Shown here: piece after piece, positions 12,807 through 62,070 of the stretch
How the letters are laid out: every line of letters begins with the position of its first letter
Position numbering within the stretch: position 1 is the stretch's first letter
NCBI GenBank assembly: GCA_964016885.1
Contig: OZ024742.1
Span: 197,408,001 to 197,472,000 of the forward strand
Direction of reading: 5' to 3'
Length of the DNA: 64,000 bases
Origin: Eledone cirrhosa
Taxonomy: Eukaryota
Notes under the pieces: model-generated
Seen by the model: the letters and a program-made list of their open reading frames with translations, nothing else
What the model was told of the DNA's origin: nothing
The model's database searches: none
Position numbers and translations under genes: made by a program

Positions 12807-12808
<2 letters not shown>

Positions 12809-15080: not shown

Positions 15081-15111
<31 letters not shown>

Positions 15112-15477: not shown

Positions 15478-15787
15478 TTCCTGTGTCAGTGTTGAACAAA
15501 AAGGTGACGTGGTTGCCTAAACACGGTACGGCGTAATTCGGGCTGTTTGTTGTTTACAATATAATAAGTGTTCGGTAAACCGATACGTGCATATATATAT
15601 ATATGTGCATGTATGTATATATATACATACTACTGTACGTCTGTATACATATATGTATGTACGTATACATACATACATACTTTTATATATATATATATAT
15701 ATATATGTAGATAAATCTACCAAGAGTTTACGGTAGTGTCCAATCCGTATGAAGAACTCAATGTAATCCGGATATTTTATTTTATTT

Positions 15788-16677: not shown

Positions 16678-16681
<4 letters not shown>

Positions 16682-17178
16682 AGTTAATATAAATTAATAT
16701 ATGATAAACACGTAAGTGTTTGCATTGCAAAAGACTAAGTTAGCTAGAATGAAATAAACTAATTAAAATAAATATAGTTTGTCCGTCTCGATATAAATCG
16801 ATAAAAATTTTCTGGATTCCTGTTGACAAGCACAGAAGATTTGAATATTTCACTTTTTATACCACCGTTACGAAACATATTTAGGTTTTGAAGTTCAAAT
16901 TCATCTACGGACCAGGTTTGGATTTTGAAATTTAAATTTGTCCAGGAATCACGGCTTTTGCCAATATGACCTTGTTTTTATCGATTTATATCGATTTATA
17001 TCGAGACGGACAAACTATATTTATTTTAATTAGTTTATTTCATTCTCGCTAACTTAGTCTTTTGCAATGCAAACACTTACGTGTTTATCATATATTAATT
17101 TATATTAACTTGTATTTCACGGCTCAGAAATGCTTCTTTCTTTGAGCTAATTAATTGTAAATGACTCCAAATATAATA

Positions 17179-17180: not shown

Positions 17181-17262
<82 letters not shown>

Positions 17263-17264
17263 TT

Positions 17265-19027
<1,763 letters not shown>

Positions 19028-19631: not shown

Positions 19632-20199
19632 TACATATATATATACATATACGGTACTGGCATTGATAAATATGCTGGGTCCGTCAACCCTTATTATATT
19701 TATATACGTATATATATATGTATATATGTATATGTATATATATATCACGATAAATTAACGGAGTCATAGGCCCTCGCCATTCCATGTAAATAATGTGCTC
19801 AAAGGAGAAGAAATCCTGAGCTCTTTAAAATATAATATGTTGAAAAAGTAACACACCAGAGAGAGATATATACAGTGCGTTATCAATAAAACAGGGAAAA
19901 AACCACCAGTGTATAGAATCTATAACCTATGAAAGGCAGACTATAGACACGATAATTAAAAATATAAATTAATGCGTAAATAAATACCTCTATAACTATA
20001 TAACACACGTACAAATCCAAAGAGATGTTTCGCCAGTAAGTTGTTGACAGAAATGGAATAACCTCGGTTCATCACTTGCAAGAACTAGTAGTAAACACTG
20101 CTAGTAGTCACATGGTTTCTCCGAAGGGAGGTAATCCCCGGTTTTGGCGGTCAAATTCAAAATTTGAACAAAGGATTTAAATCCTTTACACAAACCGAA

Positions 20200-20397: not shown

Positions 20398-20459
20398 GAT
20401 AGATAGATATATAGAGAGAGATCATGTATGTGCATGTTCGAACTATGTTCTAAATATTT

Positions 20460-21042
20460 TTGCGGTATATAGCTACGGCTCTTTACGTTGTGAGTTCAAA
20501 TCCCCTCGAAGTTAACATTGCTTTTCATCCTTACGGGGTCGATGAAATAAATACCAGTCACACACTAGGATCTATTTAATGGACTTTCCCTTCTCTTAAA
20601 TCTGAAACCATTGGATTGGCAGTGTCGGTAGAGGGTCGGACGCCATGCTTTGACGTATATAGTTACGGCCCTTGCCATTCTGAGTTCAAATCCCACCGAG
20701 GTTAACTTTGCCTTTCATCCGTAAGGGGTCGATAAAATAAAGTACCAGTAATGTACTGGGTAATTACTAGCCTTGTGCCAAAAGTAGAAACAATTATTAT
20801 TGTTGTTGCTATTAAGGTTTGTGGAATGGCAGTATCGGGAGAGCGTCGAACAAAATGATTTGCGTTTTTTTTTTATGACTTTCTACGTTTTGTGTTTAAA
20901 TCCCGTCGAGGTCTACTTTGGCTTTCATCCTTCTAGGTTCGATAAAATAAAATACCAGTAACGCACTGGGTTCGATTTAATCGACTTTCTTCTTCCCTTC
21001 AAATTGCTGGCCTTGTGCCAAATGTAGAAACAATTCTTATTA
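20460..21042 (+). mobile_element. Three tandem SINE copies
   Basis: Dominant SINE motifs. Confidence 0.8.
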
Positions 21043-21059
21043 TTGTGCATTGTTACTGC

Positions 21060-23557: not shown

Positions 23558-23629
<72 letters not shown>

Positions 23630-25429
23630 TTTAGCGAGGTTTTTTATATGAAATCGTGTGTCGAAGCAGATATTGTTATACTTGGGGAGGGTCATATTTG
23701 CGTAATATTGCCAGAATTAATAACAGAACACACTCACTGTTTGGTTGGTTTTCGCTTCTCGCTGTCTTTTATATTTGCGATCTAACTTACTCGGTCCTCA
23801 ATGTTGCCATTGACTGACCGACGGTCAAAAATAATACAGATACAATATAGACACACACACATATATATAGTTTACATAATTTACATAAATCTTTCGTTGC
23901 ACATCTGCAACATCGTCAGTGGTGTTATATTTTTTTCCTCCTGTTGTGTTGTATGTCTACGCCATTTTTTATTCAGTCTGTCTATATATTTATTTATTTA
24001 TTTGTTTGTTTGTTTATTTTATTTTGTCTTCTTTGCGCATGCGTTTGCGTGTGTGTATAGTGTTATGTGTGCTGTGTGACTAGTGTGTATAGTGTTGTGT
24101 CTGCTGGCTGACTAGTGTGTGTTTATGTGCTTGTTGTTATTGTGCTTGTGTATGTATTTATTTATCTTATTTTATTTTATTTTATTTATTTACTTATTTA
24201 TACTTCTCTTGGGTCAGTGTTGTTTGTTTGGGTGTTGTTGTTGTTCCACTCATTCTTTCTGTTTAGCTTTGGTCTTCTAATTTCTATTTCACTGGCCTCT
24301 CTGATTTGCCTATCTGCTGGGTTATTCCTATGTTTAGATATTATTCTAATTTCTATGTTGTCTATGTTACCGTCATGTTGTTGTCTAGCATGTTCGTATA
24401 GTACTGACCCGTTTTTCGTCCTTTTAGTTCCCCCCAGTGTTGGTCTATCCTTTCACCTATGCTACGAGCTGTCTCACCTATGTATGTTGTTGTCATGTTT
24501 CTACAAGTACCCTCTGTACATCTTATGCTATAGACTACGTTTCTAGTTTTACAGTTTATCCGGGTGTTCACCTTACATATGATACATTTCCTATTGGTAC
24601 AGTGGGTTTTCTTAAAAGGGTAGGTTTTGCTGATCAGGGATTTTATGGTGGTTCCTGGCTTTTCTACCACCTTTATTTTTAAGTGGGTCTTTCTCAGGGC
24701 CTTTCTACACTGGTTAGCTAATTTCCCTCCAGGGGTGGCGTCCACAAACATGACACTCTGCTATCTCTGGTTGTCGTACCAGAGAACTGCATGCGGTTGA
24801 TGAAGTGTTGGATGTGTCTTTCCATTTCTGTTGGGTCGCACATGCTGGACACATTCTTCATCACTCGTACCAAATCTGCGATCAGAATATTAAACTTAGC
24901 ACTACTGGACATTGCTGAGTTTTTGAGTATCAGGTATTTGGAGGCCATGGGTTTAGCATAGTGTGAGTGGAGAATTTGGGCTCTCTCGTCTATAGTGTTA
25001 ATCCAGAGTTCTGTGTCTAATACAGGTAGTCTATTGTTAGGGTGTTTGGAAGGGAAGTCGATAGTTACAGTTATACTCTGGTGTATGGAATTAGCTATCT
25101 GCTGGATGCTTTCCATCGTGCTACGTTCTAAATCAAACTTGTTAGTGCTCTCTAGTGGGGGTGTTCTTATAACTATATTGATATCGTCTACATAACGAGA
25201 GTACATGATGCGGTCTATGGAGCTTTCATTAAGGAGATATTTAAGTCTCCTTTCCCACCATACCATGAAAAGGTTGTCAAGATCACCAGCTATGTTTCTG
25301 CCCTAGTAGACCTATAAGAGGTAGACCTCCCACCATAACCTCAATGGTAAAAAAGACTCCCATAGGAAGGTGGATTGGGTGGACCAAAGCTATACGGACC
25401 CCCCAAAACACTGATCAGGTAAAAAAAAA

Positions 25430-26797
25430 ATGGTCGCACATGCTATAGGGGCTAGTATCAAAACTACCCTAAAGGGCCACATATTTAAGTTCAATGAGAA
25501 AATCTACACCCAAAATGAGGGAGCAGCCATCGGCGTCAGCATAGCTGGTGATGTTGACAACCTTTTCATGGTATGGTGGGAAAGGAGACTTAAAGATCTC
25601 CTTAATGAAAGCTCCATAGACCGCATCATGTACTCTCGTTATGTAGACGATATCAATATAGTTATAAGAACACCCCCACTAGAGAGCACTAACAAGTTTG
25701 ATTTAGAACGTAGCACGATGGAAAGCATCCAGCAGATAGCTAATTCCATACACCAGAGTATAACTGTAGCTATCGACTTCCCTTCCAAACACCCTAACAA
25801 TAGACTACCTGTATTAGACACAGAACTCTGGATTAACACTATAGACGAGAGAGCCCAAATTCTCCACTCGCACTATGCTAAACCCATGGCCTCCAAATAC
25901 CTGATACTCAAAAACTCAGCAATGTCCAGTAGTGCTAAGTTTAATATTCTGATCGCAGATTTGGTACGAGTGATGAAGAATGTGTCCAGCATGTGCGACC
26001 CAACAGAAATGGAAAGACACATCCAACACTTCATCAACCGCATGCAGTTCTCTGGCTACAACCAAAGAGACAGAGTCAGAGTATACGAAGGAGCCATGGA
26101 AAAGTATAAGACCCTCATAGAACTGGACATGAAAGGTATTTGCCCACTATACAGGAGCAAATCATGGAATAGCTTAGATAGGGCTACACATAAGATAGGG
26201 AAGGCCACATCATGGTACGACAACCAGAGATAGCAGAGTGTCATGTTTGTGGACGCCACCCCTGGAGGGAAATTAGCTAACCAGTGTAGAAAGGCCCTGA
26301 GAAAGACCCACTTAAAAATAAAGGTGGTAGAAAAGCCAGGAACCACCATAAAATCCCTGATCAGCAAAACCTACCCTTTTAAGAAAACCCACTGTACCAA
26401 TAGGAAATGTATCATATGTAAGGTGAACACCCGGATAAACTGTAAAACTAGAAACGTAGTCTATAGCATAAGATGTACAGAGGGTACTTGTAGAAACATG
26501 ACAACAACATACATAGGTGAGACAGCTCGTAGCATAGGTGAAAGGATAGACCAACACTGGGAGGAACTAAAAGGACGAAAAAACGGGTCAGTACTATACG
26601 AACATGCTAGACAACAGCATGACGGTAACATAGACAACATAGAAATTAGAATAATATCTAAACATAGGAATGACCCAGTAGATAGGCAAATCAGAGAGGC
26701 CAGTGAAATAGAAATTAGAAGACCAAAGCTAAACAGAAAGAATGAGTGGAACAACAACAACACCCAAACAAACAACACTGATCTAAGAGAAGTATAA
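25430..26797 (+). pseudogene. PLE RT (RYVDD) and GIY-YIG ORF, 5'-truncated, with in-frame TAG at 26231-26233
   Basis: Q.EGAAIGVSIAG, YSRYVDD, LPVLDTELW, HYAKP; ORFs 25430 and 26243 share a frame; VVY...YIGET. Confidence 0.9.
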
Positions 26798-27037
26798 ATA
26801 AGTAAATAAATAAAATAAAATAAAATAAGATAAATAAATACATACACAAGCACAATAACAACAAGCACATAAACACACACTAGTCACCCAGCAGACACAA
26901 CACTATACACACTAGTCACACAGCACACATAACACTATACACACACACGCAAACGCATGCGCAAAGAAGACAAAATAAAATAAACAAACAAGCAAATAAA
27001 TAAATAAATATATAGACAGACTGAATAAAAAATATAA

Positions 27038-27080
27038 CACCACTGACGATGTTGCAGATGTGCAACGAAAGATTTATGTA
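27038..27080 (+). ncRNA. Hammerhead-like motif in PLE 3' UTR (mirror at ~23885-23922 on -)
   Basis: CTGACGA-t-gttgca(gatg)tgcaac-GAAA-GAT-TTA; stem I weak. Confidence 0.5.
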
Positions 27081-27288
27081 AATTATGTAAACTATATATA
27101 TGTGTTTGTGTCTATATTGTATCTGTATTATTTTTGACCGTCGGTCAGTCAATGGCAACATTGAGGACCGAGTAAGTTAGATCGCAGATATAAAAGACAG
27201 CGAGAAGCGAAAACCAACCAAACAGTGAGTGTGTTCTGTTATTAATTCTGGCAATATTACGCAAATATGACCCTCCCCAAGTATAACA

Positions 27289-27334
<46 letters not shown>

Positions 27335-28115: not shown

Positions 28116-28310
28116 AGGGCAGTGGATTGGCAGTATCGCTAGAGGGTCGGACACCATGCTTTTCAGCATAGAGTTACGGCCCTTTATGATCTGAGCTCAC
28201 ATCCCGCCGAGGTTAACATTGCCTTTCATCCTTATGGGGTCGATAAAATAAAGTACCAGTAATTCACTGAGTAATTGCTGGCCTTGTGCCAAAAGTAGAA
28301 ACAATTATTT
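28116..28310 (+). mobile_element. Full-length SINE
   Basis: gggcagtggattggcagtatc...gccttgtgccaaaagtagaaacaatt. Confidence 0.88.
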
Positions 28311-28436
28311 AATATTGAAATGACTTCTATATGACTAGAACTATTTCATTCGTACGAAATCACCATGAATGCATTTCTGATGATTTCATACGAATGAAAC
28401 AGTTCTAGTCCTGTAAAAGCCATTTCTATATTAAAT
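28310..28436. mobile_element. Short palindromic mini-element with partial hammerhead core
   Basis: Inverted arms around ~28370; CTGATGA...GAAAC at 28377-28400; related sequence at 4985-5035. Confidence 0.55.
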
Positions 28437-28475
28437 AATTATATATCTATGTATATAATTCTTTCTCTCTCTCTC

Positions 28476-28847: not shown

Positions 28848-29058
28848 ATGAAAAGATTCAGGACCCTGACGGCTGAGCTCCGGTCGTTTCGACTGTTAGA
28901 ACCGAACGGATCTAGATGAGTTCGGATCTAGCTGTCGAAACGGCCAGAGCTCAGCCGTCAGGGTCCTGATTCTTTTCATATTACCCACTCTGCTACCCCA
29001 AGTATCGAGTATTGTGGTGAGTTATAGTCCACATGGTATTTTACCACACCATATCTGA
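28848..29058. mobile_element. Palindromic TA-flanked mini-element with tail
   Basis: Arms 28848-28895 / 28930-28980 with CGAAACGGCC; related ends at 35775-35850 and 59155-59283. Confidence 0.65.
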
Positions 29059-29241: not shown

Positions 29242-29374
29242 CCCGCTTTACGTGTGTTGTATTGAAGCGAATAACTATGTGTATACTCTGGGAATGTATC
29301 CTACATTACCTATTGAGTACGCTGAGATACAACTGGTCCTGGCATTGATAAATATGCTGGATCCGTCAACTCCT

Positions 29375-29462
<88 letters not shown>

Positions 29463-29828
29463 GAAATAGCACGGAAAATATATTTAGGCGTCTGTTTTTC
29501 TTTTTTCCTTTTCTTTGATTCGTTGATGGGACATTATTGAAAAAATGAGAGGGACAGTTCTTTTAAAAAGAGAGTTTTATAATGTATATAATGTATATAA
29601 AGTATTACCGGTTTCGATGTATTAGTAAAATTAACTTCATTTATTTATATTCGCTGCAATATATGTTTCGGTGATAACCATTATTCAACAGCTATGACCT
29701 CGTCAGGCCGCTAGAACTAGAACAGAAATTAACAAGAAAACACAATGGTGGAACAAAGTTTATCTTATTAATTCGTTCATATTAAAGCTAAATAGTTACT
29801 CTGAAGTTTCACCTATATATAAATGATG

Positions 29829-29901
<73 letters not shown>

Positions 29902-30149
29902 ATTAAAAGAAGCTATAGTCATATGAAAAGTAATTGTATAGTGCAACAGGCTAAGAAACCTAAAACCGAAACTAATATTGAGTATTACAATTAAAAGAAT
30001 TAATAAGGATTAAAAACTATCAATTAAAGATTTAAAATTAAGTTTTGAGCTAAGTTTTTTTCATCTTCCTTGTTGAGAAGGAGACTGGAAAATGAACTTT
30101 TTGAACGCCGAGAATACATGCATATATGTAAGTATAAATAAAGTTCTGA

Positions 30150-30330
30150 AGCGCAGAAATGCTACAAAGATACCTTATAAAATAGAGTGAAGACGCTTAA
30201 AAGACGGAAACAGAAGTTGCCATCGACCGCTATAAGGAAATAAATCCATAGCAGCCGATGGCAACTGTTTCCGTGTTTTAAGGGGGTTCAGCCTATTTTA
30301 TAATGCATCTTTATACCATTTCTGCGCTTG
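30150..30330. mobile_element. Hairpin MITE-like element (second copy at ~32468-32642, opposite orientation)
   Basis: Imperfect palindrome agaaatgcta...tagcatttct with the same asymmetric centre in both copies. Confidence 0.6.
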
Positions 30331-30347
30331 GGCACTTTCTTTATACT

Positions 30348-30435
<88 letters not shown>

Positions 30436-30593
30436 TCATATTATAATGTGTGCATGTGTGTTGTATGTGTGGGTGTATGTCTATATATATATATAGTTAG
30501 TTGTGTATATGTATGTATATATATATACACACACATCCATATTATAATGTGTGCTTGCGTGTTGTATGCGTGGGTGTATGTCTATCTCTCGCT

Positions 30594-30732
<139 letters not shown>

Positions 30733-30992
30733 TATCTCCATTAAATGTGAAGACATTAGCATATAAGTATATATCTTGGTGTGTGTCTCATAAATACATT
30801 TACAAAGATGTTTGGGTATGGTATACATGCATGTATGCATATATGCATATACAATTATAATCTCTTGTTTAGTGAGTAGCTGTGCAGTGGTAAAAAAACC
30901 ACACATAAAATATATCTTGACAGGCACATGTGAAAGCAACGGTTACTGTTTTTCATATTGTATTTATTATTGTTATTATTATTATAGTATAT

Positions 30993-31190
30993 AGGGCGGT
31001 GGATTGGCAGTATCGGTAGAGGGTCGGACGTCATGCTTTCATGCATAGAGTTACGGCCCTTTCCATTCTGAGTTCAAATCCCGCCGAGGTCAAATTTGCC
31101 TTTCCTCCTTACGGGGTCGATAAAATAAAGTACCAGTAATGTACTTGGCAATTGCTGGCCTTGTGCCAAAAGTAGAAACTATTATTATTA
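30993..31190 (+). mobile_element. Full-length SINE with TSD
   Basis: Dominant SINE; tattattattatagtatat on both sides. Confidence 0.9.
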
Positions 31191-31544
31191 TAGTATATCT
31201 CATATATAGTTGTTTTATGTCTTAGAATTTGCTGAACGTAATAAGTAGACAATGACAAATGCTAACTTGCTGTTAGCTGTGAATGTTACATCAATGAGTC
31301 TAACATCTTTTTTTCTTTCGTTTTATTGAGCAAATTTTCACATAAACATACATACAGTATTCTGACGTGTAAAGAAGATATTGAAGAACTATAAAAATAC
31401 ATTAACTGATGTTTACAGCTCTAAATTCCTCGACTGAATGAAGTGAGGTTTATGAACTAATCAGTGGAAATTAGTTTCGGTTTTAGGTTTCTTAGCCTGT
31501 TGCACTATACAATTACTTTTCATGTGACTATAGCTTCTTTTAAT

Positions 31545-31591
<47 letters not shown>

Positions 31592-31934
31592 CATCATTTA
31601 TATATAGGTGAAACTTCAGAGTAACTATTTAGCTTTAATATGAACGAATTAATAAGATAAACTTTGTTCCACCATTGTGTTTTCTTGTTTTTTTCTGTTC
31701 TAGTTCTAGCAGCCTGATGAGGTCATAGCTGTTGAATAATGGTTATCACCGAAACATATATTGCAGCGAATATAAATAAATGAAGTTAATTTGGCCTGTT
31801 GACTTAGATTTCTTGTTTTTAAATTACTCCGGAGTAAACAGACACACCTGCGCACTTCGTTGAGTGCTCTAACCTGCATACTGAAGTGTCGGTAAGCAAC
31901 CAACACATACTCAAATCTCTCTCTATATATATAC

Positions 31935-32460: not shown

Positions 32461-33199
32461 TAGAAATGAGAAATGCTATAAACATAGCTTATAAAATAGG
32501 GTAAACGCCCTTAAAAGATGGAAAAAGAGGTTGCCATCGGCAGCTATGGAGTTTATTTACTCATAGAGGCCGATGACAACTTCTGTTTCCGCCTTTTAAG
32601 GGTGTTCACCCTATTGTATAAGCTATCTTTATAGCATTTCTGAGGTATTTTTGCCCATTGCTCTTTTTGACAGTATTTGGCTGTTTTAACGGCTGTTTTA
32701 GCGATTAATTTTTTCATTTTTATGTATTTAAATACACTCTCGCTTCGTTTCGATCAGAGATAACAATGTTTTTCATTCAATATTTCTTTTGTTTGAATAA
32801 CTTCTTCAGACGGGCTTTTAGTCTACACCAGTCTCTAGCTGGACTCTCTGCAACTGTTTTTGCATAGGCAGTGGTATGTAGCTTTTCTTTTGCAGTGTAC
32901 GAGTTTATAACTCTACCCATGGAACTCTACCCATGGTCACTTTGTGAATGACTGGTTAGGATTTGCATTGCTATCAATAAAAGGTGTGCACATAAATCAC
33001 TAATCCGTTAGATTCACATGTCACAGCTGTTAAAAATGTAATTAACTTGCTAATTATCTTTATATTGGAAAATGACACATTCACCAATGTTCACTAGGTT
33101 GAACGTGCAGTGGCAGATTTTCCCAGTTTCTCTTGCACGTTATACACCATAACGAGGCTTTTCCATACGTTCCTGGTCAAAAGGGGCTGCGCGTTGTCC

Positions 33200-33731: not shown

Positions 33732-34622
33732 CGAGGTGTGTCAGAAAAGTTCCAGGACTGATGTCACAAAAGATTTATTTCAAACCCAAATTTCACACTA
33801 AGAGTTTTCTCCTTCAAAGTAATCCCCCCAGTAACTGTAATCTTAGCGCTCAGCAGTGATCAAACTTTTATCTTTATAATTTGATATACATGTCCTTTGT
33901 TTCAGGTCGTCAAGCAATGAGCACACAGCAACGAACAAACTTGAAAACTCCGTCAGAAGCACTGGGATTGCTGCAGCAAGTGTATGGAGATGAGACGATG
34001 TCACTCTCACGTGTTTTTGAGTGGTGCAAGAGGTTTAAAGAAGGACGCGAGGACGTGGAAGATGACCCCAGGAGCGGAAGGCCCTCAACAACCAGGACTG
34101 AGGTCAAGGTTGAGCGCGTCAGGCAGATGGGGCGTAGCGATCGTCGGCTGACTGTTCGACTGACGGCAAATGAGCTGGGCATGAATCGAGACAGCGTCTG
34201 GAAGATTCACACTGCAGATTTGGACATCCGGAAAGTCTGCGCGAAGATGGTGCCAAAACTGCTGAACGATGACCAGAAGGGTCGACGCATGCAAGTGTGC
34301 TAGGACATCCTCGAGCATCTTGAAACCGAACCAGACTTGCTAGGGTCAGTCATCACCGGTGATGATTTCATGGATCTTCGAGTACGACCCGGAGTGGATC
34401 CGTTTTGAAGACGTGGACGACATCAAAAAGGCCGTGACGTCGGAACTGCGGAGGATCCCGGATGAACCCTTCCAGGAGTGCATGCAAGCGTGGCAGAAAA
34501 GGATGGAAAAGTGCATTAGACTCCAGGGGGCTTACTTTGAAGGAGAAAACTCTTAGTGTGAAGTGTGGGTTTGAAATAAATCTTTTGTGACATCAGTCCT
34601 GGAACTTTTCTGACCCACCTCG
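33732..34622 (+). mobile_element. Internally deleted mariner (Tc1/mariner) transposon
   Basis: ~57-bp TIRs CGAGGTGTGTCAGAAAAGTTCCAGGACTG; TA TSDs; HTH region VFEWCKRFKEGREDVEDDPRSGRP, KVCAKMVPKLL, ITGD..WIFEYDPE fused to C-terminal KCIRLQGAYFEG. Confidence 0.93.
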
Positions 34623-35886
34623 TATATGTTATCGAACAAAGGAAGGCTCTTTAAGATTCGACGATTCAATGCTTCAACAAAAACACATATTGCACTGATA
34701 CGTGATCTTTATGCAGAAGACTGATCTTGTTAGTTACACGGAAAAAGACTTTCAACTTATGATGGATTGCTTCTCGGCAGTATTTGATGAGTTTGAAAAA
34801 GACAATGGTGGTGTACCAGCATACACACGGAAAGCCATATAACCCACCATCCATATATGTGAAAGATGAAATATTGAAGGCTGAGGATAAGTAATACTCT
34901 CTCCAGAAGCAGCACCCTTGATGAAGAAGTAATTTACGAGTAAGAGCCAGTTAATAGTTTGAACATTTTAGAAGAATGAAGCTAAGATGATGTCAGTCTG
35001 AGATGGTAGTACAAGTTGTGATATACGAGGAAAAAATAAGACTAGTTATAAATAATTATGAATTACTACCTCCTTACGGACAACCGATGCTGCACACTAG
35101 GTCTGCTATGGCTTCTGATGCTTTTGATAAGCTGGAGAGACGCCTGTGGTCACAGTCAGTTATTAGTGTTTGCACGAAGGTTGATGTATATCAAGCAAGT
35201 GTACTTACAGCCTTGTTGTATGAATGTGAGACATGGACAAAATACTGTGAGTTTATCCAGTGAGTCTGTCTATGCTGCAGTGGGCCTGTCTGCCAAGCAT
35301 CGAGACCATGATCATGAAACAGCGTCTCCGGTGGTCAGGTCACATAGTACACCTAGAGGACAGCAGACTCCCAAAATAAATATTGTATGGAGAACTCTTA
35401 CAAGGCAAACGCCTGCAGTGCAAGACACACAAGCGCATTAAAGACTGCCTGAAAGGTACTCAGAAGAAGATCAACACCGAAACATGGGAAATTCTTGCAA
35501 CAGACAGGTTCTAGTGGTGAAATCTGATTGCTAACGGTGTTAAGGAATTTGAAAAGAAGCAGAGTGTCCTATGCTAAAGTGAAGCGAGCAGATAAATATA
35601 TGGGGAGTGTTAGCCCGTTCTCAGAACAGGGTTCGAAAGAGACTCTTACCTGTGAGTGATACGGACGTGTGTGTATGTCAAAGGCAGGTCTACTAAGCCA
35701 TAACAGACGTCATACTCATAGAAATAACACTTTTGAGTATCTCATAAACCTTCATTTTATATATATATATATATAAAACAAAAGGTATGGTAAGGAACCA
35801 GGTGGACCATAACACACCAGAGTACTCGGTACTTAGGGTAGTAAGTGGGGTCTTGCTCTTTTCCTCTCTCTCTCACTCTCTCTCTA

Positions 35887-36663: not shown

Positions 36664-36799
36664 TATATATATATATATATATATATAGTAATAATAATAA
36701 ATTTGAAGACTAAAATCCAAAGAGCGCTCGATAAGGCTAAATATATATCAAATATATAAGAACCGTAGAGCAAATATTTATTATATATATATATATATG

Positions 36800-39947: not shown

Positions 39948-40351
39948 AATGTAGGAGGTGAGTTTTATTGTAGTACAATAAAGCAATGCAGATATCGGAT
40001 AAGAAGCACTCTACAGTTTGTGGGACTGGAGTATGCATAATATAAGATCAAAAGATGGTTAAAGGAGTTCCATATATTTTATTATGCGCATTTCAAAAAC
40101 AAACATCATCAAACAATAATATTTGCGTTTTCATCAGATAAAACAGGAGAACATGATATGAAGGCTAAAAAACACTTGTTGATATGTTGATTTAAAACTG
40201 CACTATCAACAAGTGTTTTTTAGCCTTCATATCATGTTCTCCTGTTTTATCTGATGAAAACGCAAATATTATTGTTTGATGATGTTTGTTTTTGAAATGC
40301 GCATAATAAAATATATGGAACTCCTTTAACCATCTTTTGATCTTATATTAT
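39948..40351. mobile_element. Palindromic TA-flanked mini-element with two identical hammerheads
   Basis: Perfect arms 40037-40184 / 40204-40351; same family as 7290-7512. Confidence 0.85.
40245..40311 (+). ncRNA. Minimal hammerhead ribozyme (mirror at 40077-40143 on -)
   Basis: ttttat-CTGATGA-aaacgcaaatattatt/gatgatgtttgttttt-GAAA-T-GCGC-ATA^-ataaaa. Confidence 0.8.
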
Positions 40352-40680: not shown

Positions 40681-43555
<2,875 letters not shown>

Positions 43556-43755
43556 TAAGTATACTATTTATGGTTATGCAAATACAAAAACCTTTTGTAG
43601 TTATATATATTTTTACAAACCCTAAATAGTGATAGGCAGTAATATATTACTACCTTATTACCAGTAAGTTAAATAGCTCAATGTAATAACATCAGATGAT
43701 TTACAGAGCAGTTATATGAATTATAAGAATCAAAGAACTGTTCAAAACATTTTTA

Positions 43756-43802: not shown

Positions 43803-44725
43803 ATTTATTATTGAATGAACACTTATATGACCTCCTTTTCAACCCAAGAGACATACAGATACATATGCAAATATTGTGGGTCAACATCCATTACAGCATT
43901 TAGTGTGGCAGTACACATTTAGAGATTACATTCATATTAAAAGATAAAATCAAAAATACAGGTTAAAATACAACATGAAATTAATGTGATACGATAGTCA
44001 TAAGCGGTTATTGAGTGCAATAGTTATACGTGTGGCAAGCACGTGCGTCTTATTTATATAGTGTGGCAGAGAGTTGCGTGTAATAGAAGCACTTAAACAG
44101 GTGATCAAGGGTGTTAAGGGGGTTGATCTGGTAATGAATTCTTTATATGATTGTTATAGCCTGTGCGTGGAGAAATAATATAAGCATTAAAAATAATATA
44201 AGCATTAGAAATATTGGAAATGCGTAGCGAAGCGATGATATGGATTCCATGCACTGCGACATTTTCATAGTCCGGGGAGCGTATTTTTCAGATTATATGC
44301 CCCTCACATAATCCACGACGATTCGATATTGGGCGTTTGACAATCCTGTTAAAGAATCGTAGTCTGGTGGTCTTTAAAGAAAAATGGAGTATATATTTTG
44401 TTTATCTAATAATTCTGTAGACAGGATTTATGATAATATATTGCTCTGAGTATTTAATTTATTAATTCTTCATAGAGCTAAAAAGTGACCGGTTGTAACA
44501 TATATAAATTTATGTATATGTAAACCTTTATATTTAATAATCTCCCGTAAGGTTGAGATTAAATTTGGCGATATTTGGCTGCGCTTTCGAGCGACAGGCC
44601 TACACGCCGTCAACAGCCAATCACATTCTTTCCAACTTGACCACGGCCATAGTGTGATTCTTAGCCATTTTTGAATCCAATTTTGGCGCGATCGGCTTGG
44701 AATACTAAGTGTCTATTTTTGAGTT

Positions 44726-44805
44726 TATCTCCTGATGATTCCGAACTCAATGAATTTCCTATGAATAGGATATCTAAAAATACGGATGAAACCATGGTAG
44801 GGATA
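44726..44805 (+). ncRNA. Type-I hammerhead ribozyme, copy 1
   Basis: tatctc-CTGATGA-t-tccg...cgga-t-GAAA-C-CATG-GTA^-gggata. Confidence 0.75.
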
Positions 44806-45386
44806 TAGTTACGGTATGTACACAGTTCTTCTATGTTTGATTTTACACCGAATTACATATGGTTAATTATGTACTTGGTCGATTTATGCATGCTGTCGAA
44901 ATGTTGGATAAATAACCTGCTGTGGATACCGCGAAGAAGCCACTCTCGTTTATTTGTCGGAGATTTCTTCATAGGAGCTTTTATCCTTATGGCTTAGTAT
45001 AATTGATTTTTTTATATGGTTGATTGTGCTGTTTGGCAGAGGAAATGGAGTATATATTTTGTTTATCTAATCATTCTGTAGACAGGATTTATAATAATAT
45101 ATTGCTCTGAGTATTTAATTTATTAATTCTTCATAGAGCTAAAAAGTGACCGGTTGTAACATATATAAATTTATGTATATGTAAACCTTTATATTTAATA
45201 ATCTCCCGTAAGGTTGAGATTAAATTTGGCGATATTTGGCTGCGCTTTCGAGCGACAGGCCTACACGCCGTCAACAGCCAATCACATTCTTTCCAACTTT
45301 ACCACGGCCTTAGTGTGATTCTTAGCCATTTTTGAATCCAATTTTGGCGCGATCGGCTTGGAATACTAAGTGTCTATTTTTAAGTT

Positions 45387-45466
45387 TATCTCCTGATGAT
45401 TCCGAACTCAATGGATTTCCTATGAATAGGATATCTAAAAATACGGATGAAACCATGGTAGAGATA
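45387..45466 (+). ncRNA. Type-I hammerhead ribozyme, copy 2
   Basis: tatctc-CTGATGA-t-tccg...cgga-t-GAAA-C-CATG-GTA^-gagata; perfect stem I, palindromic ACCATGGT. Confidence 0.8.
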
Positions 45467-45749
45467 TAGTTACGGTATGTACACAGTTCTTCTGTTTGAT
45501 TTTACACCGAATTGCATATGGTTAATTATGTACTTGGTCGATTTATGCATGCTGTCGAAATGTTGGATAAATAACCTGCTGTGGATACCGCGAAGAAGCC
45601 ACTCTCGTTTATTTGTCGGAGATTTCTTCATAGGAGCTTTTATCCATATGGCTTAGTATAATTGATTTTTTATATGGTTGATTGTGCTGTTTGGCAGAGG
45701 AAATGGAGTATATATTTTGTTTATCTAATAATTCTGTAGACATGATTTA

Positions 45750-47461
<1,712 letters not shown>

Positions 47462-47920: not shown

Positions 47921-47923
<3 letters not shown>

Positions 47924-48340
47924 TAATAAAAGGAATTCCACTTTGTCTGATTTACTCGTTTTATTTACAATCCTTTAAAATTTATAATGGTATTAGAATG
48001 AAATAATATGGTAGAATATTAAATGTTAAGTGTTAATTGAACAAGTACTTTCATGCTTTCGCAATCTTCAGGTTCATAATGTGTGGTGACAGTCAAGTTT
48101 GCAATTTACAACTGTTGTAAATTGCAAACTTGACTGTCACCACACATTATGAACCTGAAGATTGCGAAAGCATGAAAGTACTTGTTCAATTAACACTTAA
48201 CATTTAATATTCTACCATATTATTTCATTCTAATACCATTATAAATTTTAAAGGATTGTAAATAAAACGAGTAAATCAGACAAAGTGGAATTCCTTTTAT
48301 TAATATAATCTTCTATACACAATCATACACACCCGTGTAT
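47921..48340. mobile_element. Perfect 385-bp palindrome (centre 48113) with tail, TA-flanked
   Basis: 47921-48112 is the reverse complement of 48114-48305. Confidence 0.88.
48150..48188 (+). ncRNA. Very short hammerhead ribozyme (mirror at 48038-48076 on -)
   Basis: tgaac-CTGAAGA-t-tgc(gaaa)gca-t-GAAA-GTA-CTT^-gttca; palindromic stem III AAGTACTT. Confidence 0.75.
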
Positions 48341-48344
48341 ATTT

Positions 48345-48440
<96 letters not shown>

Positions 48441-48934
48441 ATATATATAAATCTGAAAATTTCTGTATGTATGTGTATATGTGTGTCGACATTTTTTAAT
48501 GAGGGCTCATATATTCTAAGCCATTTTATGTGATTTTACAGAGCTTCTCCTTGCACAAAACCTGTACATGATCTACAAAGGCTTTCAAAAATCGATATTG
48601 GGGCTTTTGAAGACTTTAAAAAAGTTTCAGTTATTTGTGTGAATTTTCGTGATTAAGTAAGACAAGAATTATCTTTCGTAATCAAGAGTTATCTTTCGTA
48701 ATTCGGCTCATTCGGATTTTAATTTACACTTTCTACTTGAAACAAAGAGAATAACAATATCATTTCGTATATTTCACAACCAGCAATTTCTAACAGATTA
48801 CTAAGTTAGGTTATAGATTTGACCTTGTATAATTTATCGTTTCAAGCTTGATGTTCATATTAACTGATTTCATAACTTTTACAATATTATGCTTAAATGT
48901 ATCTAAAGGATGATTTATACATGAAAGACTTAGA

Positions 48935-50202
<1,268 letters not shown>

Positions 50203-50260
50203 ATATAGCGAATAAGGAAAAGCGAAGTAGTTTCAGATGTTCAAGTCCTTTAATAATAAT

Positions 50261-50334
50261 GCTGTGATATATATTTCAGTGACGACACTGGCCACACTGT
50301 TCTGTGTGCGAGTGTCGTGTCATCATCAGACAGC
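50261..50334 (-). ncRNA. Type-I hammerhead ribozyme in an ORF-less element (50207-~51420)
   Basis: gctgt-CTGATGA-tgacacgacact...agtgtcgtcact-GAAA-T-ATAT-ATC^-acagc; 50207-50264 inverted at 51325-51382. Confidence 0.8.
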
Positions 50335-51614
50335 TTGTTACATAATAAGGTTATGTTTCCGAGGCAATCCAAATTGGATCGACATGGGAACGGATGAATT
50401 GCGTGTTTGGGGGTTTTTCATCCGCTCCCTTGTGAGTACCAATTCACCCCCACCGGCCTGCGCAAGCGCATGTCCGAAGGAAGTTGACCATTAGCCACCG
50501 CAGATTTCAACGAAATTTGCTTAGTCAGTTCACCCTGTCAGCCAAAACAATGGCCCACCAATGCCTGTACCATATTTTAATGCTACCCATCACGGCTGTG
50601 GCAGTCAGCCGAGAACCAGAGGATATGGGAGAGTGTTTGTTTTTACAGGTCATAATACTACCCCTCACTAAGCGTTGACGGTACGACTGACCATCAGCTT
50701 ATAAGGGAAAATAAACTTATTCTAGGTATCATGGTTTTACGTTGGAAGTTAAGAGTGAGAGTTGGAAATAAAAATTAAAATCCTAAATCAAATATCAGAA
50801 ATTATAAATTAAACAATTAAGAAATTAACAGTTAGAAATTAAAGAATTAAAAAAAGAATTAAAAAAATTATTTTCAGGTGATAATTCGGATTGAGGTAAG
50901 TAAAAATATAGACTGAAGTGAGTAAATAATATGGAGAGAGATGTTTAAGTAATATGTTCTGAGAGGGATTCTAGTGTCACAGGTACTCTATCCACATATT
51001 GAACGACAGTCCCGTACATTATAACTACAGAGCTCCAGGCATTAGTCAATCTGGTACACAGTCCTAATTTCCATCACATGGAACAAAATCAAAGAAAAAC
51101 AAACATAAAGTACACAAAAGAAAAGAACAGAACCAATAGTGAATAAATGCAAAAACACAGAGTACATATATGCAAAATGATCCATATGATTGTCCATCTG
51201 TCCATGTATAGATTGAATTGAGGGGGCCTCTATTCAAATTGGATTTGGTGCAGGAAAATAGGGGTTTATCCTATTATTTGTTTCCGCGTATTTATCCTGC
51301 CGAAAGTTACTATTATGTCCGTCCAGCATTATTATTAAAGGACTTGAACATCTGAAACTACTTCGCTTTTCCTTATTCGATATTTACTCCGTCACTCCTA
51401 TGTGGAAAAAGTACGTTGAGTGCTTGAATTGAATTGCATCAATGTTTACCCTAATAATTTAGCTCCAATTAGTTGAGCGCTTTACGATGTAACCGATATG
51501 GTGGAGAGGAGAGGAACCAACCATAAGCTACCCCGGAAATTCCCTCTACCATGGGGATGGAAACCCCTTACACTGGACGGACATAATAGTAACTTTCGGC
51601 AGGATAAATACGCG

Positions 51615-52485
51615 TACGTCAAACAAAACACAAAGTACACATATACACACACCCTACATACGTACGAACCCGAATACTCACACAGACGCAAAACTCACGT
51701 ATACACATAACCAAAAGCATATGTACCAGAATATATAAAATATACGCCTTAACATATACAATCAAATATACGCACGAGAAAGTATACGTACCTTCACAAA
51801 ACATACATGTAATATATACTTACCAATACAAATAAGTAATGGTATAAACATAACATATACTTAGCTACCACATCAAGACGTAAAATATCCGCGTATAGTT
51901 CGTACTATCTGTTAGGGTATAATGTGGGGCTGTAATACAGGAAAGTTTTGTGCAATTTATGTTTACAAGCCGAAATTGCCTCAGATTTTTTTGTTTAAGA
52001 TGTGGTCTTTGGCGTAGAGTATTTCCAGGGCCTCAGCGGCGCAGATGTCACATGGTCTTTTATTTCCGTCATACGATCGAGCCTGAGCTAGGATCTCCCA
52101 GTGTAACTTATATTGGGTGTGGTTGTCTTTTAGACTCCATATATAAGCTGAAAGTAACGTCATATTCCTTCTTAAAGAGTTAAGAAAAGAATGGATATGC
52201 ATGTAAAGACGGTGCTTGAATCTATTGGCGGTTAACCCTATGTAGGCCCTACGGGACGTGGGTCTTTCAACCTTGCATTTGTAGACAATGTTACTAGAGA
52301 GGCATTTCCCGATTCCTACAATTACAGTTAGTACTAGCTACAGGGTTGCACGTGTTCCTACGGCTAGGTAATTTAGCTAAATTTGAAGCTGTGATATTAT
52401 GTGCAAGGTTAGGAGTCGTAGAGTAAGAAATGTTAATGGTATTTCTATTTAAAATGTTATTATATTTATGTGTAGGGGTAAAATA
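51615..52485 (-). mobile_element. Second Hydra-like PLE copy (GIY-YIG)
   Basis: High similarity to 17975-18890; SAYIWSLKDNHTQYKLHWEILAQA...CDICAAEALEIL. Confidence 0.82.
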
Positions 52486-52529
52486 TCGAGCCCTCTTTGG
52501 ATTTTAGTTTTCAAATTTATTATTATTAC

Positions 52530-53205
<676 letters not shown>

Positions 53206-53212
<7 letters not shown>

Positions 53213-53292
53213 TAAGAGATTAAAGTTTAAGCAAAGAGAATCGCTGGTGAAAGCAACGATTCTTTGCTTAAATTTTAATCTGTTATTGTAAT
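53206..53292. mobile_element. Tiny palindrome made of the 3' end of the PLE family at 17265
   Basis: attaaaataa(c/g)agatt(c/a)aagtttaagcaaagaatcg matches 17265-17305 and is folded back. Confidence 0.6.
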
Positions 53293-53734
53293 AAGTATTT
53301 GGTTTTCTGCTAGCATGTATTGTGTGCATATTGATATTATACGCAAGTATATATGCATGTAGATATGATACATCAAATAAAATCGCAATTGACAATATAC
53401 ACAGAAATTGAACGAAAACTGCGTTACACTGTCTTATATAACGATGCAAATATTTGAACGTTTTATATAAGCGATTTAAAAAGTGTTATAATATAATGGA
53501 CGCTAACCGGAAGTGTTGACAGTTGAAAATTTGAAAGAAGTGAATAAAAAATTATTTATATTTAATCAAGAGTTACGAAATTTAGTACATAAATTATGTA
53601 ATATTCATTGAATATTAATTCGAAGTCATCCAACTTATATTACAAACGGGATAAAACAATATATTCATGACGCAGTCCCGCAACCCCCTTTATTATATTA
53701 TGATACTAGTTACAGTCCGTACTAACGAAACAAC

Positions 53735-54051: not shown

Positions 54052-55031
54052 TAATCTATATAACTATACAGAATGTTTTTTTATCGTTTTCAACACAGAC
54101 GCTGCGACTGTCAACAGCGTTCTAAAATATTTCATTCACGGAATATAATTAAATATATGACAGGAAGGAGCAGATGTTCAACATTTTCTAAAATGTATTC
54201 ATTCATGCTAGAAGCCAGCGTTCTCTGCCAACAATGTTCCATCACTCACGTTTCCTCTTCATATTCATCTACCACTATCTCTCTGATTAAGGACAAAGAA
54301 CCACAGTGTCAGTGAATCTAACGAGTTACCGTCTATCTACGGCATTTGAAAATTAAGACACATGCATTCTTATATATGTGTTCATATATACTAACGCTCA
54401 TACACTGTGTGCGCATGTGTCTACTTGTGTGAATTCATACTTGTAAATGTCAATAATTTAAATAACGAAATAATTACTCGGGTTTAAAATTAATTAAATC
54501 AGATTTATAATAGGAAGTAACATATTTTGTTCTTTGACCTTTATTATCCAATGTATAATAAAGATATTTGTAGGCAATGTTCTCTCCTGAAGACATTTAA
54601 TTATGTTTGGAAATATGTTAGACAGACGAATGACAAGAGTTAGACTAATAACTGCGTCATTTAAAATGGAATAACTATTAAATATTAACATGAAATACAA
54701 ACAAAATCTAACAATCCAACGAAGGTAGCTGGATTTGCTAGAAAGAGCAGCCAAAACACTCTTAAATATATACTATACTATCATTAAAAAGTAGAAAGGG
54801 AGTAAATATGTGGAATAATGTGATCTGAGATAATCCAGGGGTCGAAAAAACTGGATGGAAACAGCTAGAACGCTTTTGATCATATGTCTACTCGATTAGG
54901 GCTAAGCAACAGCAATAGCAACAACTACAGCAACAATTAACATCAACAACAGTAGCAACAACAGCAACAACACCAGAAATTACAACAACAACAACAGCAA
55001 TATAATAATAAGAAGCATTTAATGAACGTGA

Positions 55032-55209
55032 AGGGCGGTGGATTGGCAGTGTCGGTAGAGGGTCTGACGCCAAGCTTTGCAGCAAAGAGTTACGTCCCTT
55101 TATGGTCTGAGTTCAAATCCCGCCGAGGTTAACTTTGCCTTTCATCCTTACGGGGTCGATAAAATAATACACTGGGTAATTGCTGGCCTTGTGCCAAAAG
55201 TAGAAACAA
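55032..55209 (+). mobile_element. Full-length SINE with 13-bp TSD
   Basis: TTAATGAACGTGA at 55019-55031 and 55210-55222. Confidence 0.9.
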
Positions 55210-55777
55210 TTAATGAACGTGACTCATCAGAAGATGATGAAGATATACATTTACTAATATTAGAGATTAAATGTTATAGAATATTGGCTAAGTGGTAGAA
55301 TTTGTTTACATAATTATCTTCCATTCGATTTTCCGTAAAGGCGACTTTGCTAATATCTAAATCTAAGGCGATATAAAAAAATTAATTATATTAAGGTTAG
55401 TGTCAATTAAAATTCGTAAATCTATTTCATTAAATAACTAGAACATCTTTCCTAAATGAATCTTGCACGGTCCCAAACTTACGAACGAGTTACGTTACAA
55501 GAGGCCGTTCATTAGTTGATTTGTACGTAAGTTGATCGTCTAACACAGTACGTAACAGTAAGCCCATACATGTTATATTGATACAGCATATGGAAATATG
55601 AGTGATATATATATATATAGTAATAATAATAAATGTGGAGACTAAAATCCGAAGAGGGTTCGATAAGGATTATATATATATAAATTAAACTATAATAAAG
55701 TAAGGAGTGCGGGACTGCGTCCAGAATATATTTTTTTTATCCCGTTTGTAAAATAAGTTGGATTACTTTGAATAAAT

Positions 55778-55920
55778 AACTGTTTCTACTTTAGGCACAA
55801 GGCCAGCAATTACCCAGTGCATTACTGGTACTTTATTTTATCGACCCCGTAAGGATGAAAGGCAAAGTCAACCTCGGCGGGATTTGAACTCAGATCGTAA
55901 AGGGGCGTAACTATGCTGGA
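55778..55920 (-). mobile_element. 5'-truncated SINE
   Basis: Dominant SINE motifs. Confidence 0.85.
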
Positions 55921-56611
55921 ATGAAAGAATATTACATAATTGATGTACTAAATTTCGTTATTCTTGATTAAATATAAATAATTTTGTTGGTTATTTTAAG
56001 ATTCACTTCTTTAAAATTTTCAAATGTCAACACTTCCGGTTAGCGATCGCTTAAATAAACATTCATATATTTCCGTCACTAATTTTCTCCTAATGCAGTT
56101 TATATATAATATCGTCTTTTTTTAATGAATTACTTTACTGATTGTAGAAGAGAGTGTAACACAGTCTCTCTTCAATGTGTGTGCATATTCTCAATTACGA
56201 TTTTATTTGACGTATCATATCTAAATGCATATATATTTGCATATAATATCAATATGCACACTACACATGCTGGCAGAAAACCGCGTTTTTCTGCTAGTAT
56301 GGATAAAAGCTGGAGAGTAGATTAATTTCAAATAGTATCAATTTTTCTTTGTTCTGTAAAATCAAAGACTGTAAAACGACTTCATAAAAGCTTACGCAAT
56401 ATTGTTAAACCTTCAACAGATACCTTTGTGTACGTCACTCTCTCTCTCTCTCTCACTCACACTCTCTCTCTCTCTCTCTCTCTCCCTCTCTCTCTCTCTC
56501 TCTCACTCTCTCTCTCTCAAAATATCTAACACTTTAATTGTATCTCTCTCTGTATAACGGCATATCTCTCCCTTTCTATTTCTCCCTCTGTGTCTTTCTC
56601 TCTCTTTAGAT

Positions 56612-58692: not shown

Positions 58693-59062
58693 ATATATTA
58701 ATAAATGGAAACTATATTTATAAAACCATAATTATTTTATTATATATATTTCAAGGGCGACCAATGTAAATTATGGTGCGCTTTCATCAGATAAAATACA
58801 GATTTGTTTTATAAATAAATATTGACATACCCAGAAAAAAGACAACCTCAACGGTTGAAATTCGGTGGATGGTCCACTACTATGTTGAGTGCTTTATATC
58901 AGTTATAAACATTTTTAAGCTTGTTGAATCCCAACAAATTAAATATAACCTCTGCATATATATATATATATATATGTGTGTTCTATTGATGACATGCATA
59001 TGATTTATACGCATGTGAAAATGTATATATATATATATATAAAGTTATATATATATATAAAG

Positions 59063-59153
<91 letters not shown>

Positions 59154-59281
59154 GAAGGAAGTGTGGTGGTAAGATACCAGGTGGACCATAACGTACCAGA
59201 GTACTCAATACTTAGGGTAGTAGAGTGGGTAATAGGAAAAGTGTCAGGACACCGACGGCTGAGCTCCGGCCGTTTCGACGG

Positions 59282-59317
<36 letters not shown>

Positions 59318-60690: not shown

Positions 60691-60970
60691 TAATCTATTA
60701 TGGTAATTTGCGTTAGGGCAAACACAAAATTCAAATGCCTCCAACGCTTCTTAAGTCAACCGTTGATTACACTTCTAGATACAAGCTAAAAACCTTCTAA
60801 ATAGACAGAATTGGTGACCATTAGCTCTTTAGCGTTGCGATTATCACAGCTATTTGATGGGGTCGACTCCTCGTATACGATCTGTCCACTTTTTCTCCAT
60901 TTCCAGGAGTACTTTACCCGATTTCCTAAATCATTATATATAGTGATCGACTATTATTATTATGGTTATT

Positions 60971-61155
60971 AAGGGCGGTGGATTGGCAGTATCGGTAGAA
61001 AGACGGACGCCATGCTTTACAACATAGTTACGGCCCTTTATGATCTGAGTTCAAATCTCCCGAGGTTAACTTTGGCTTTCATCCTTACGGGGTCGATAAA
61101 ATAAAGTACCAGTAATGCACTGGCCTTGTGCCAAAAGTAGAAACAATTATTATTA
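60971..61155 (+). mobile_element. Full-length SINE
   Basis: Dominant SINE within (TTA)n. Confidence 0.88.
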
Positions 61156-61849
61156 CATTTTCAATGTAAATTATTATTATTATTACATTTTCAATGTAAA
61201 TTATATGGTTTAAATTGAAATTATTGTAGAAAAGAAATTGGTTGTATGATGACCAAAATTGCAATTTCAACGGGTGGGGTTCATTTTTACAATTTACACT
61301 ACGTGGAGAATTTATTTACTAATAATATTATTTAATTGGACTGTTCTTTTTTTTATCAAATAGAGGAAAATAGCTCACAGTTGGATTGTTTGATAGAAAA
61401 TTCTTTATTTACCTTTAACTATAAACTTCGTTTGTTTTCATAACCGAAAGCAAACAGTGAGAACGCCAAAATACTTTTTTCATGTTGGTGTCTTCGTTAT
61501 TATTTATTTAAAGATCCGAAAGCTAACATTCCGAACGGATACCCACCCATAGAAGATGAAGTAGCCATGTGCTGATTAAGAACACACTCAAGATAAATGC
61601 CATAATTATATTGTGAAACAGAAATCCGTCAAACTTTTAAGGGACAACAGTGAAGGACTGGAAACTAAATTAATGTCTTTACTTTATCTGTTATCATGAA
61701 ATAGAATATAGCGGCAATATTAACACAAACAATAATACTAATAATTGGATGATAATAATATTAATTAAACAACAACAACAGCAGCAGCAGCAGCAGGAGC
61801 AGCAGCCATAGCAGCAGCAGCAGCAGCGGCGTCAGGAATAATAATAATA

Positions 61850-62070
61850 ATAATTGTTTCTACTTTAGGCACAAGGTCAGCAATTTAAGGGGATGGAGAA
61901 AGTCGATTAAATCGACCCCAGTGCATTACTGGTATTTATTTTATCAACCCCGTAAGGATGAAAGGCAAAGCTAACCTCAGCAGAATCTAAGATCTGAAAG
62001 TAAAGGACCGTAACTTGTGCTGCGAAGCATGTTGTCCGACGGTCTACCGTTCTGCCAATCCACCGCCCTT
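61850..62070 (-). mobile_element. Full-length SINE
   Basis: Dominant SINE within (TAA)n. Confidence 0.85.

Follow-up and report, generated by a model that had tools for sequence, protein, structure and literature searches.

Penelope-like elements (PLEs) leave insertions of a distinctive build. Craig et al. (2021; PMC8557442) describe a high degree of 5' truncation, an adjacent inverted truncated copy, a tail of 30-40 bp at one end and (TA)n targets, with Octopus among the hosts of one clade, and Arkhipova et al. (2013; PMC3846280) describe head-to-head palindromic junctions. Minimal hammerhead ribozymes of metazoan PLEs, found mostly in truncated copies, were reported by Cervera and de la Pena (2014; PMC4209133), together with dual motifs that lie on opposite strands, 100-700 bp apart, in Schistosoma. 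In vitro, the Anolis Poseidon protein cuts AT-rich DNA on both strands and extends both; reverse transcription begins at two internal sites that bound the tail, and mostly on uncleaved RNA (Frangieh et al. 2024; PMC11167929). The making of PLE tails and inverted junctions is called unresolved in both PMC8557442 and PMC11167929. Among cephalopods, 31 recently active PLE families have been counted in O. vulgaris (PMC13282606).

Here, we analyzed 64,000 nucleotides of the Eledone cirrhosa genome (contig OZ024742.1, positions 197,408,001 to 197,472,000; this whole stretch is the window), in which a first-pass annotation had noticed a recurrent design of short palindromes in (TA)n runs. These insertions share with published PLE insertions (PMC8557442, PMC3846280) the truncation, the inverted 5' copy, the head-to-head junction, the tail at one end and the (TA)n surroundings. 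As a design this is not novel but the structure already published for PLE insertions, a known kind of which the window provides new examples. The differences are modest and concern the very small size (often 90-500 nt in total, with no ORF), the longer tails (41-100 nt versus 30-40 bp) and the high density. Specifically, the (TA)n statement in PMC8557442 is made for Naiads, which are without hammerheads, whereas the elements here carry them. These hammerheads resemble those of PMC4209133 in being type I with a short palindromic stem III; several of them, however, close stem II by U-U or A-U where the published motifs have G-C, and some of these putative ribozymes have a long stem II or III in contrast to the minimal hammerheads. 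The Poseidon scheme fits the two constant 3' ends and the retained ribozymes seen in the window, but the Poseidon experiments do not show the origin of inverted junctions (PMC11167929).

Animal non-LTR retrozymes (bioRxiv 10.64898/2026.07.22.740005) are likewise short, non-coding, type I hammerhead-bearing and derived from PLE terminal repeats. They are, however, described as head-to-tail tandems with two ribozymes per strand, whereas the mini-elements are head-to-head with one ribozyme per strand; with inverted arms and no tandem array at the mini sites, we rejected an identity with retrozymes. The literature covered, the main texts of mostly open-access papers, contained no paper on such mini-palindromes in cephalopods and none applying to PLEs the concept of twin priming, a name that comes from L1 work (10.1101/2024.08.27.596794).

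Anatomy of the palindromic insertions

All seven palindromes claimed in the first-pass annotation proved real when their arms were located and compared base by base (Table 1). The description of the element at 47921 as perfect around a 1-nt loop is accurate, the two arms being identical around the single base 48113, and at the six other sites the arms span 37-177 nt and are 85-100% identical. An unbiased palindrome seed scan of the whole window returned 17 clusters, 11 of which held at least four seeds, compared with 0-3 in 20 shuffles, and recovered six of the seven listed palindromes, missing 53206. Two additional stumps, at 28303 and 15108, are included in the table. A stretch at 16680-17170 has the same layout, with arms of 129 nt (127/129), a 175-nt loop, a 58-nt tail and (TA)n on both sides; no hammerhead was found in this palindrome.

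Table 1. Positions in the window of the palindromic stumps, their family members and the coding elements (sites are named by start position)
Feature	Positions	Strand	Arms	Arm identity	Loop (nt)	Description
6878 stump	6815-7123	-	6881-7001/7003-7123	118/121	1	complete mirrored hammerheads, strict type I descriptor (6910-6969 minus, 7035-7094 plus); 66-nt tail, left side
14815 stump, older	14818-15080	+	14818-14895/14906-14983	69/78	centre near 14901	turn at first base of hammerhead core; 97-nt tail
28848 stump	28849-29058	+	28849-28913/28914-28978	57/65	0	turn in stem II region; hammerhead 3' half only; 80-nt tail
28848 family member	59152-59287	-				simply 5'-truncated, no mirror arm
28848 family member	35776-35860	-				tail only
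40037 stump	39949-40351	-	40037-40184/40204-40351	148/148	19	complete mirrored hammerheads, strict type I descriptor (40075-40145 minus, 40243-40313 plus); 88-nt tail
40037 family member, no palindrome	7292-7511	+				antisense arm joined to last ~55 nt of tail
47921 palindrome			47924-48112/48114-48302	189/189	1 (48113)	
47921 inverted arm, tail-less	47924-48112	-				abuts (TA)n; hammerhead motif 48038-48076 on minus strand
47921 tail-bearing arm	48114-48302	+				identical to left arm
47921 minimal type I hammerhead motif	48150-48188	+				39 nt
47921 one-sided tail	48303-48346	+				44 nt; small AC-rich hairpin (folding z -2.3); then (TC)n(TA)n
52668 stump	52669-53175	-	52769-52945/52999-53175	169/177	53	mirrored cores and stem II; 100-nt tail
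52668 relative, 69% identical	29628-31914	+				mirrored hammerheads; ~1.5 kb unmirrored interior
53206 stump, tiny	53208-53298	+	53208-53246/53254-53290	33/37	7	mirrored hammerhead 3' half; same family as 17259-17311
Additional stump, absent from the first-pass list	28303-28460	+				turn 5 nt upstream of core; core intact in right arm
Additional stump	15108-15682	+				complete hammerhead 15436-15478 in unmirrored loop; tail on inverted arm
Coding PLE 3' part	7550-8696	-				67-nt inverted arm; hammerhead core 7819-7846; 59-nt tail
Large head-to-head coding PLE	23627-27290					RT end and endonuclease; 7550 family; 45-nt tail
Coding PLE 3' part (GIY-YIG)	46093-47427	-	144 nt, inverted			41-nt tail on inverted arm
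Likely one 5'-truncated PLE	17259-18917	-				GIY-YIG-like ORF end 18411-18863; degenerate hammerhead ~17289-17335

As proposed, one arm adjoins a TA run, within 4 nt, at all seven sites (the run beside the 14815 stump is imperfect); as background, a (TA)4+ run is no more than 10 nt away for 3.7% of the window's non-run positions. The one-sided extension ends at a microsatellite in six of the seven minis, but the description fails for 53206, where the extension is only about 8 nt and that side has no microsatellite. The asymmetry said to be shared with the coding elements is present in all three of these, so that one-sided tails of 41-100 nt overall occur in six of seven minis and three of three coding elements. 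The 52668 tail contains an 11-nt tandem repeat, and the 47921 tail ends near 48346, where (TC)n precedes (TA)n. The AC-rich stem-loop predicted in the 47921 tail invites comparison with Poseidon (PMC11167929), but a general stem-loop of this kind is unsupported, as just 3 of 11 tails have a folding z below -2 relative to shuffles. Repeats of 40-50 nt also lie beside (TA)n at 36688-36736, 52484-52530, 55619-55668, 19653-19694 and 29335-29377, and may be tail-only PLE insertions.

The first-pass annotation had named the variability of fold-back points as a check on truncation, and within families in the window, each with few copies, these points do vary. The 28848 family comprises a palindrome, a plain truncated copy and a tail alone, and the mirror of 7550 measures 67 nt versus over 1 kb in 23627, a member of the same family. 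The 3' ends, in contrast to the joins, are nearly constant within families, both with and without the tail: the tail-less ends are identical at 8696 and 27290 and lie within 3 nt of each other at 40351 and 7292. Variable 5' truncation with constant 3' ends is seen in the families of 28848, 40037, 53206, 52668 and 7550. Since relatives differ in their join or are without a mirror, each insertion likely builds its mirror anew. The junction of the 7292 copy (7433-7455) includes a short locally inverted piece and a 15-nt duplication, resembling a templated insertion.

The turn was expected at or just upstream of the ribozyme, and the arms indeed retain 0-122 nt before the core or turn inside it. 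At 6878, 47921, 40037 and 7292 the joins form a cluster, 39-47 nt upstream of the core; the others lie 0, 5, 104 or 122 nt upstream or within the ribozyme. The 40037 and 7292 copies extend to nearly the same upstream point, which together with the cluster hints at a defined 5' end of the RNA.

The 47921 arm is present in 11 of 15 listed public sequencing runs and is a very high-copy repeat, with 1838 contigs of run X1 on 48114-48346, a depth that is not a copy number. No RNA run and no long-read run is among those listed as containing the arm, a listing uninformative about expression. Eleven X1 contigs pass from 48307 directly into (TA)n, X4 joins unrelated sequence at 48254 and 48303, and in one contig of depth 2 (X8 record 19) the sense arm, from 48127 on, is linked to an inverted piece of the tail, a head-to-head join different from that at 47921. 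Base 48220, common to both arms of 47921, differs from 99.8% of the X1 depth and from 317 of 325 X13 reads. This shared base is as expected if both arms have one source; it could alternatively reflect arm homogenization, assembly polishing or a species difference from the runs. Of the four runs compared with 48114-48346, three are unitig contigs and the raw one is RAD-seq, with molecule ends at the AATT sites 48120, 48191, 48244 and 48289; the four runs are therefore no test of the palindrome centre, and the absence of strand-change joints among those listed comes from unitigs and restriction-cut reads, in which such a joint would hardly be visible. Metagenome contigs, scanned for two exact patterns, gave 0 matches.

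Other repeats accompany these insertions. A very abundant dispersed repeat with a SINE-like distribution, present as numerous copies and fragments, occupies 465-874, 1934-2997, 5551-6309, 11987-12982, 13632-13903, 20459-21046, 28116-28319, 30973-31198, 55031-55930 and 60950-62070, and a 2.6-kb GTG-rich tandem array with periods of 27, 78 and 144 spans 9271-11908.

Ribozyme motifs and coding relatives

The claim of mirrored hammerheads stands in full for three of the seven sites and nearly so for one, while the remaining three carry partial motifs. A strict type I descriptor, run over the whole window, gave 10 matches on 9 distinct cores, compared with 0.1 cores per locally shuffled window (30 shuffles), and both mirrored copies at 6878, 40037 and 47921 account for six of the nine. 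In a relaxed scan, which had no shuffle control and whose output includes probable chance matches, both arms of 52668 show the core and stem II, each with a single stem I mismatch, 29628-31914 likewise has mirrored cores with stem II, and cores appear in the 3' region of the coding 7550/23627 family. The partial sites, whose turn points were read by eye, are cut at different depths: 14815 turns at the first core base and shows a G8-to-A change, 28848 retains only GAAA, stem III and the GUC site, and 53206 turns at the GAAA box. Every readable hammerhead or half points outward, head to head, at all seven listed sites, and the palindromic stem III loops differ between unrelated families.

The 47921 motif has a 5-bp stem I, a 3-bp stem II closed by U-U, a 2-bp palindromic stem III and a predicted C-U-U cleavage triplet. 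Rfam returned no hammerhead family for this motif at E<=10 and none for the whole window at E<=1; 15431-15482 scores HH9 at E 0.13, below gathering, and sub-threshold microRNA-like matches were dismissed as chance, caused by hairpins and microsatellites. Plain alignment brought 10 hammerhead motifs into register at the first core box alone. Frequent variant sites of the 47921 family (at least 10% in X1 or X13) number 20 in 48114-48346 and 0 in the 39-nt motif (Fisher p=0.03), a test that used 35 of the 37 positions listed ahead of 34 weaker ones, the two omitted being under 10% and outside the motif. Elsewhere, a single complete hammerhead motif lies on the minus strand at 58733-58798, in a build similar to the 40037 family, and each unit of a ~660-nt tandem duplication at 44382-45754 (98% identity) has a hammerhead-like core variant, again on the minus strand (44585-44616, 45246-45277).

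Folded whole, the 47921 element is predicted to form a hairpin of about -308 kcal/mol whichever strand is used, and the ribozyme stems have zero probability. The earlier suggestion that the hairpin sequesters the ribozyme is in this respect borne out by prediction, but the motif also fails to fold in a single arm plus tail, where the ribozyme stems are rare too (under 0.03). On its own, the monomer is predicted to form stems I and II and no stem III, and the palindrome to pair in the dimer. With the motifs on opposite strands, one transcript therefore cannot form a double hammerhead; a transcript through the palindrome is predicted to fold as a long hairpin that would lock the ribozyme.

The window's coding elements combine a PLE-type reverse transcriptase (RT) with GIY-YIG, a pairing to which, among the minis, only 53206 is likely linked. 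In the 7550/23627 family the hammerhead core lies ~250 nt past the stop codon, and 57 longer relatives were found for the RT-end ORF piece at 25415-26230, with an Octopus vulgaris protein ranking first at 68%. Pfam matches RT in the coding elements below the cut-off and GIY-YIG at 46778-47254, 48897-49565 and, below the cut-off, 42567-43646; no clean hammerhead was found in the 46093 element.

The link for 53206 runs through 17259-17311, which its arm matches at 90%. This copy runs into a degenerate but whole hammerhead, which lies downstream of an ORF end ~1.1 kb away on the same strand, with an AC-rich 3' region and (TA)n on both sides of 17259-18917. The ORF end resembles GIY-YIG and RT-bearing proteins: at 18411-18863 it is similar to GIY-YIG clusters (feature score 0.95; the family occurs on 37% of their members), and it shares 43% identity with the C-terminal end of a YRDD-containing protein of 717 aa. 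A Pfam search assigned the ORF at 18414-18863 to no family and detected neither RT nor GIY-YIG in its longer relatives P0058-P0060. The shared strand and the lack of a long TA run between hammerhead and ORF end suggest that 17259-18917 is contiguous, and it would then likely be the parent family of 53206. The proposed link from arms to coding PLEs is in this way traced, by adjacency, for 53206, but is only presumed for the six other mini families; tblastn with 57 PLE-related proteins found no ORF remnant beside those six minis or inside 29977-31469.

Two neighboring stretches deserve mention. A further truncated PLE, at 48897-50087, combines a GIY-YIG ORF end with an AC-rich 3' region; its hammerhead core, near 49951, is degenerate, and (TA)n follows at 50088. 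In the composite stretch 50209-52484, inverted pieces (50209-50264/51324-51379; 51285-51326/51573-51614) are connected with a second copy of the PLE-like ORF end 17976-18891.

Origin of the mirrored arms

The available data are well explained by a model, in our judgement a probable one, in which each palindrome is a single, extremely 5'-truncated PLE insertion whose hammerhead-bearing 3' end was copied twice, head to head, in a TA microsatellite. The anatomy, the outward orientation, the constant 3' ends and the variable joins within families are observed in the window, and the coding PLEs of the window, which have the same layout, point to a PLE origin. The core proposal of the first-pass annotation, a 5'-truncated PLE insertion with an inverted second piece, is supported accordingly. 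Under this model, the GIY-YIG endonuclease of the element would nick both strands of (TA)n, and the reverse transcriptase would start one cDNA at an outer internal site of the RNA, yielding the tail, and a second, tail-less one at an inner site and from the opposite nick. Both cDNAs would end prematurely, in many cases on reaching or having just passed the structured ribozyme, and their ends would then be joined head to head, with the mirror rebuilt per insertion and not inherited. One cDNA per start site from opposite nicks would account for the one-sided tail, its presence on either arm and the unequal arms. In L1 twin priming the two segments are not known to overlap, whereas the PLE arms here do. 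Weighing against the model, the window contains no coding parent for six of the seven mini families, the tails are longer than those in print, and loops of 0-1 nt at four or five sites would arise more easily by fold-back self-priming; the end of four arms 39-47 nt upstream of the core, in turn, speaks against purely random truncation.

The two priming events of the earlier proposal hold up in part: they fit the unequal arms better than a simple fold-back, but the loops of 0-1 nt (6878, 28848, 47921 and 28303) favor self-priming. In that scenario, which keeps the PLE origin and is possible but doubtful as the general route, the first cDNA or antisense template folds back, is self-copied and stops before the tail, as proposed for head-to-head palindromes in PMC3846280; the rare base common to both 47921 arms would suit it. 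Self-priming would, however, mirror the sequence next to the join, and without an extra jump it cannot give the 67-nt terminal arm on the 1.08-kb copy at 7550, the 7292 copy, the 15108 and 16680 elements (loops of 175-188 nt) or X8 record 19; the fixed tail-less ends within families also count against it. At some sites self-priming may be at work. A further alternative, which we regard as unlikely, is that the minis are non-autonomous SINE-like families whose short RNAs begin in a solo terminal repeat, 40-70 nt before the hammerhead, and rely on PLE proteins acting in trans for their copying, with the mirror rebuilt at insertion. The very high depth of the 47921 arm, the join cluster, the hammerhead free of frequent variants and the six families with no coding parent in view are all compatible with it, yet the joins outside the cluster and the one family that links to a coding element count against it, ribozyme conservation is equally expected from selection on coding source elements, and the window spans only 64 kb.

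The palindromic shape and TA context also recall DNA-transposon derivatives, MITEs among them, that have long terminal inverted repeats and target TA, and another family in the window does have a fixed centre and no hammerhead (30130-30348 and 32469-32641; two copies ~84% alike with the same centre and loop). That family may be an inherited palindrome such as a MITE, in contrast to the stumps. For the stumps themselves such an origin is very improbable: one-sided tails, hammerheads, single-arm and tail-only copies and variable joins do not agree with the symmetric terminal inverted repeats and uniform copies of a MITE, which led us to reject it. The ORF piece at 33860-34303, which reads like a Tc1/mariner transposase N-terminal region, matches none of the arms among the self-comparison matches listed. 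Sequencing or assembly artefacts such as fold-back reads could likewise produce perfect palindromes, the arms are 100% identical at two sites, and no read across a centre was seen in the ill-suited unitig and RAD-seq runs. We nevertheless give this explanation hardly any credence, as mirroring stops at the element ends, the mirrored flanks share 0 11-mers at all three sites tested, and six of eight arm pairs have diverged (40 mismatches, 22 of them transitions), as in aged insertions.

Implications for PLE biology

As truncated PLE insertions, the palindromes are likely ordinary mobile-DNA debris, end-pieces left at PLE insertion, and the stumps are probably dead copies. The inverted arms are reminiscent of Drosophila, in which inverted repeats in rearranged Penelope copies give dsRNA and siRNAs map to the inverted regions (PMC3681739). 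Repeat-directed editing is reported in squid, in an account that does not mention Penelope where it treats this editing (PMC9068888). There is a slim chance that several families propagate themselves as SINE-like hammerhead RNAs whose 5' end is fixed 40-70 nt ahead of the ribozyme, that PLE proteins copy each of them twice at every insertion, and that together they seed the cephalopod genome with very many perfect hairpins, in which repeat-directed A-to-I editing or silencing by small RNAs would have a main substrate. In genome annotation, such stumps may be mislabelled as MITEs or unknown repeats. Taken together, at least nine such short insertions lie within this 64-kb window, and the many natural junctions of one genome could decide between the two-priming and the self-priming model.
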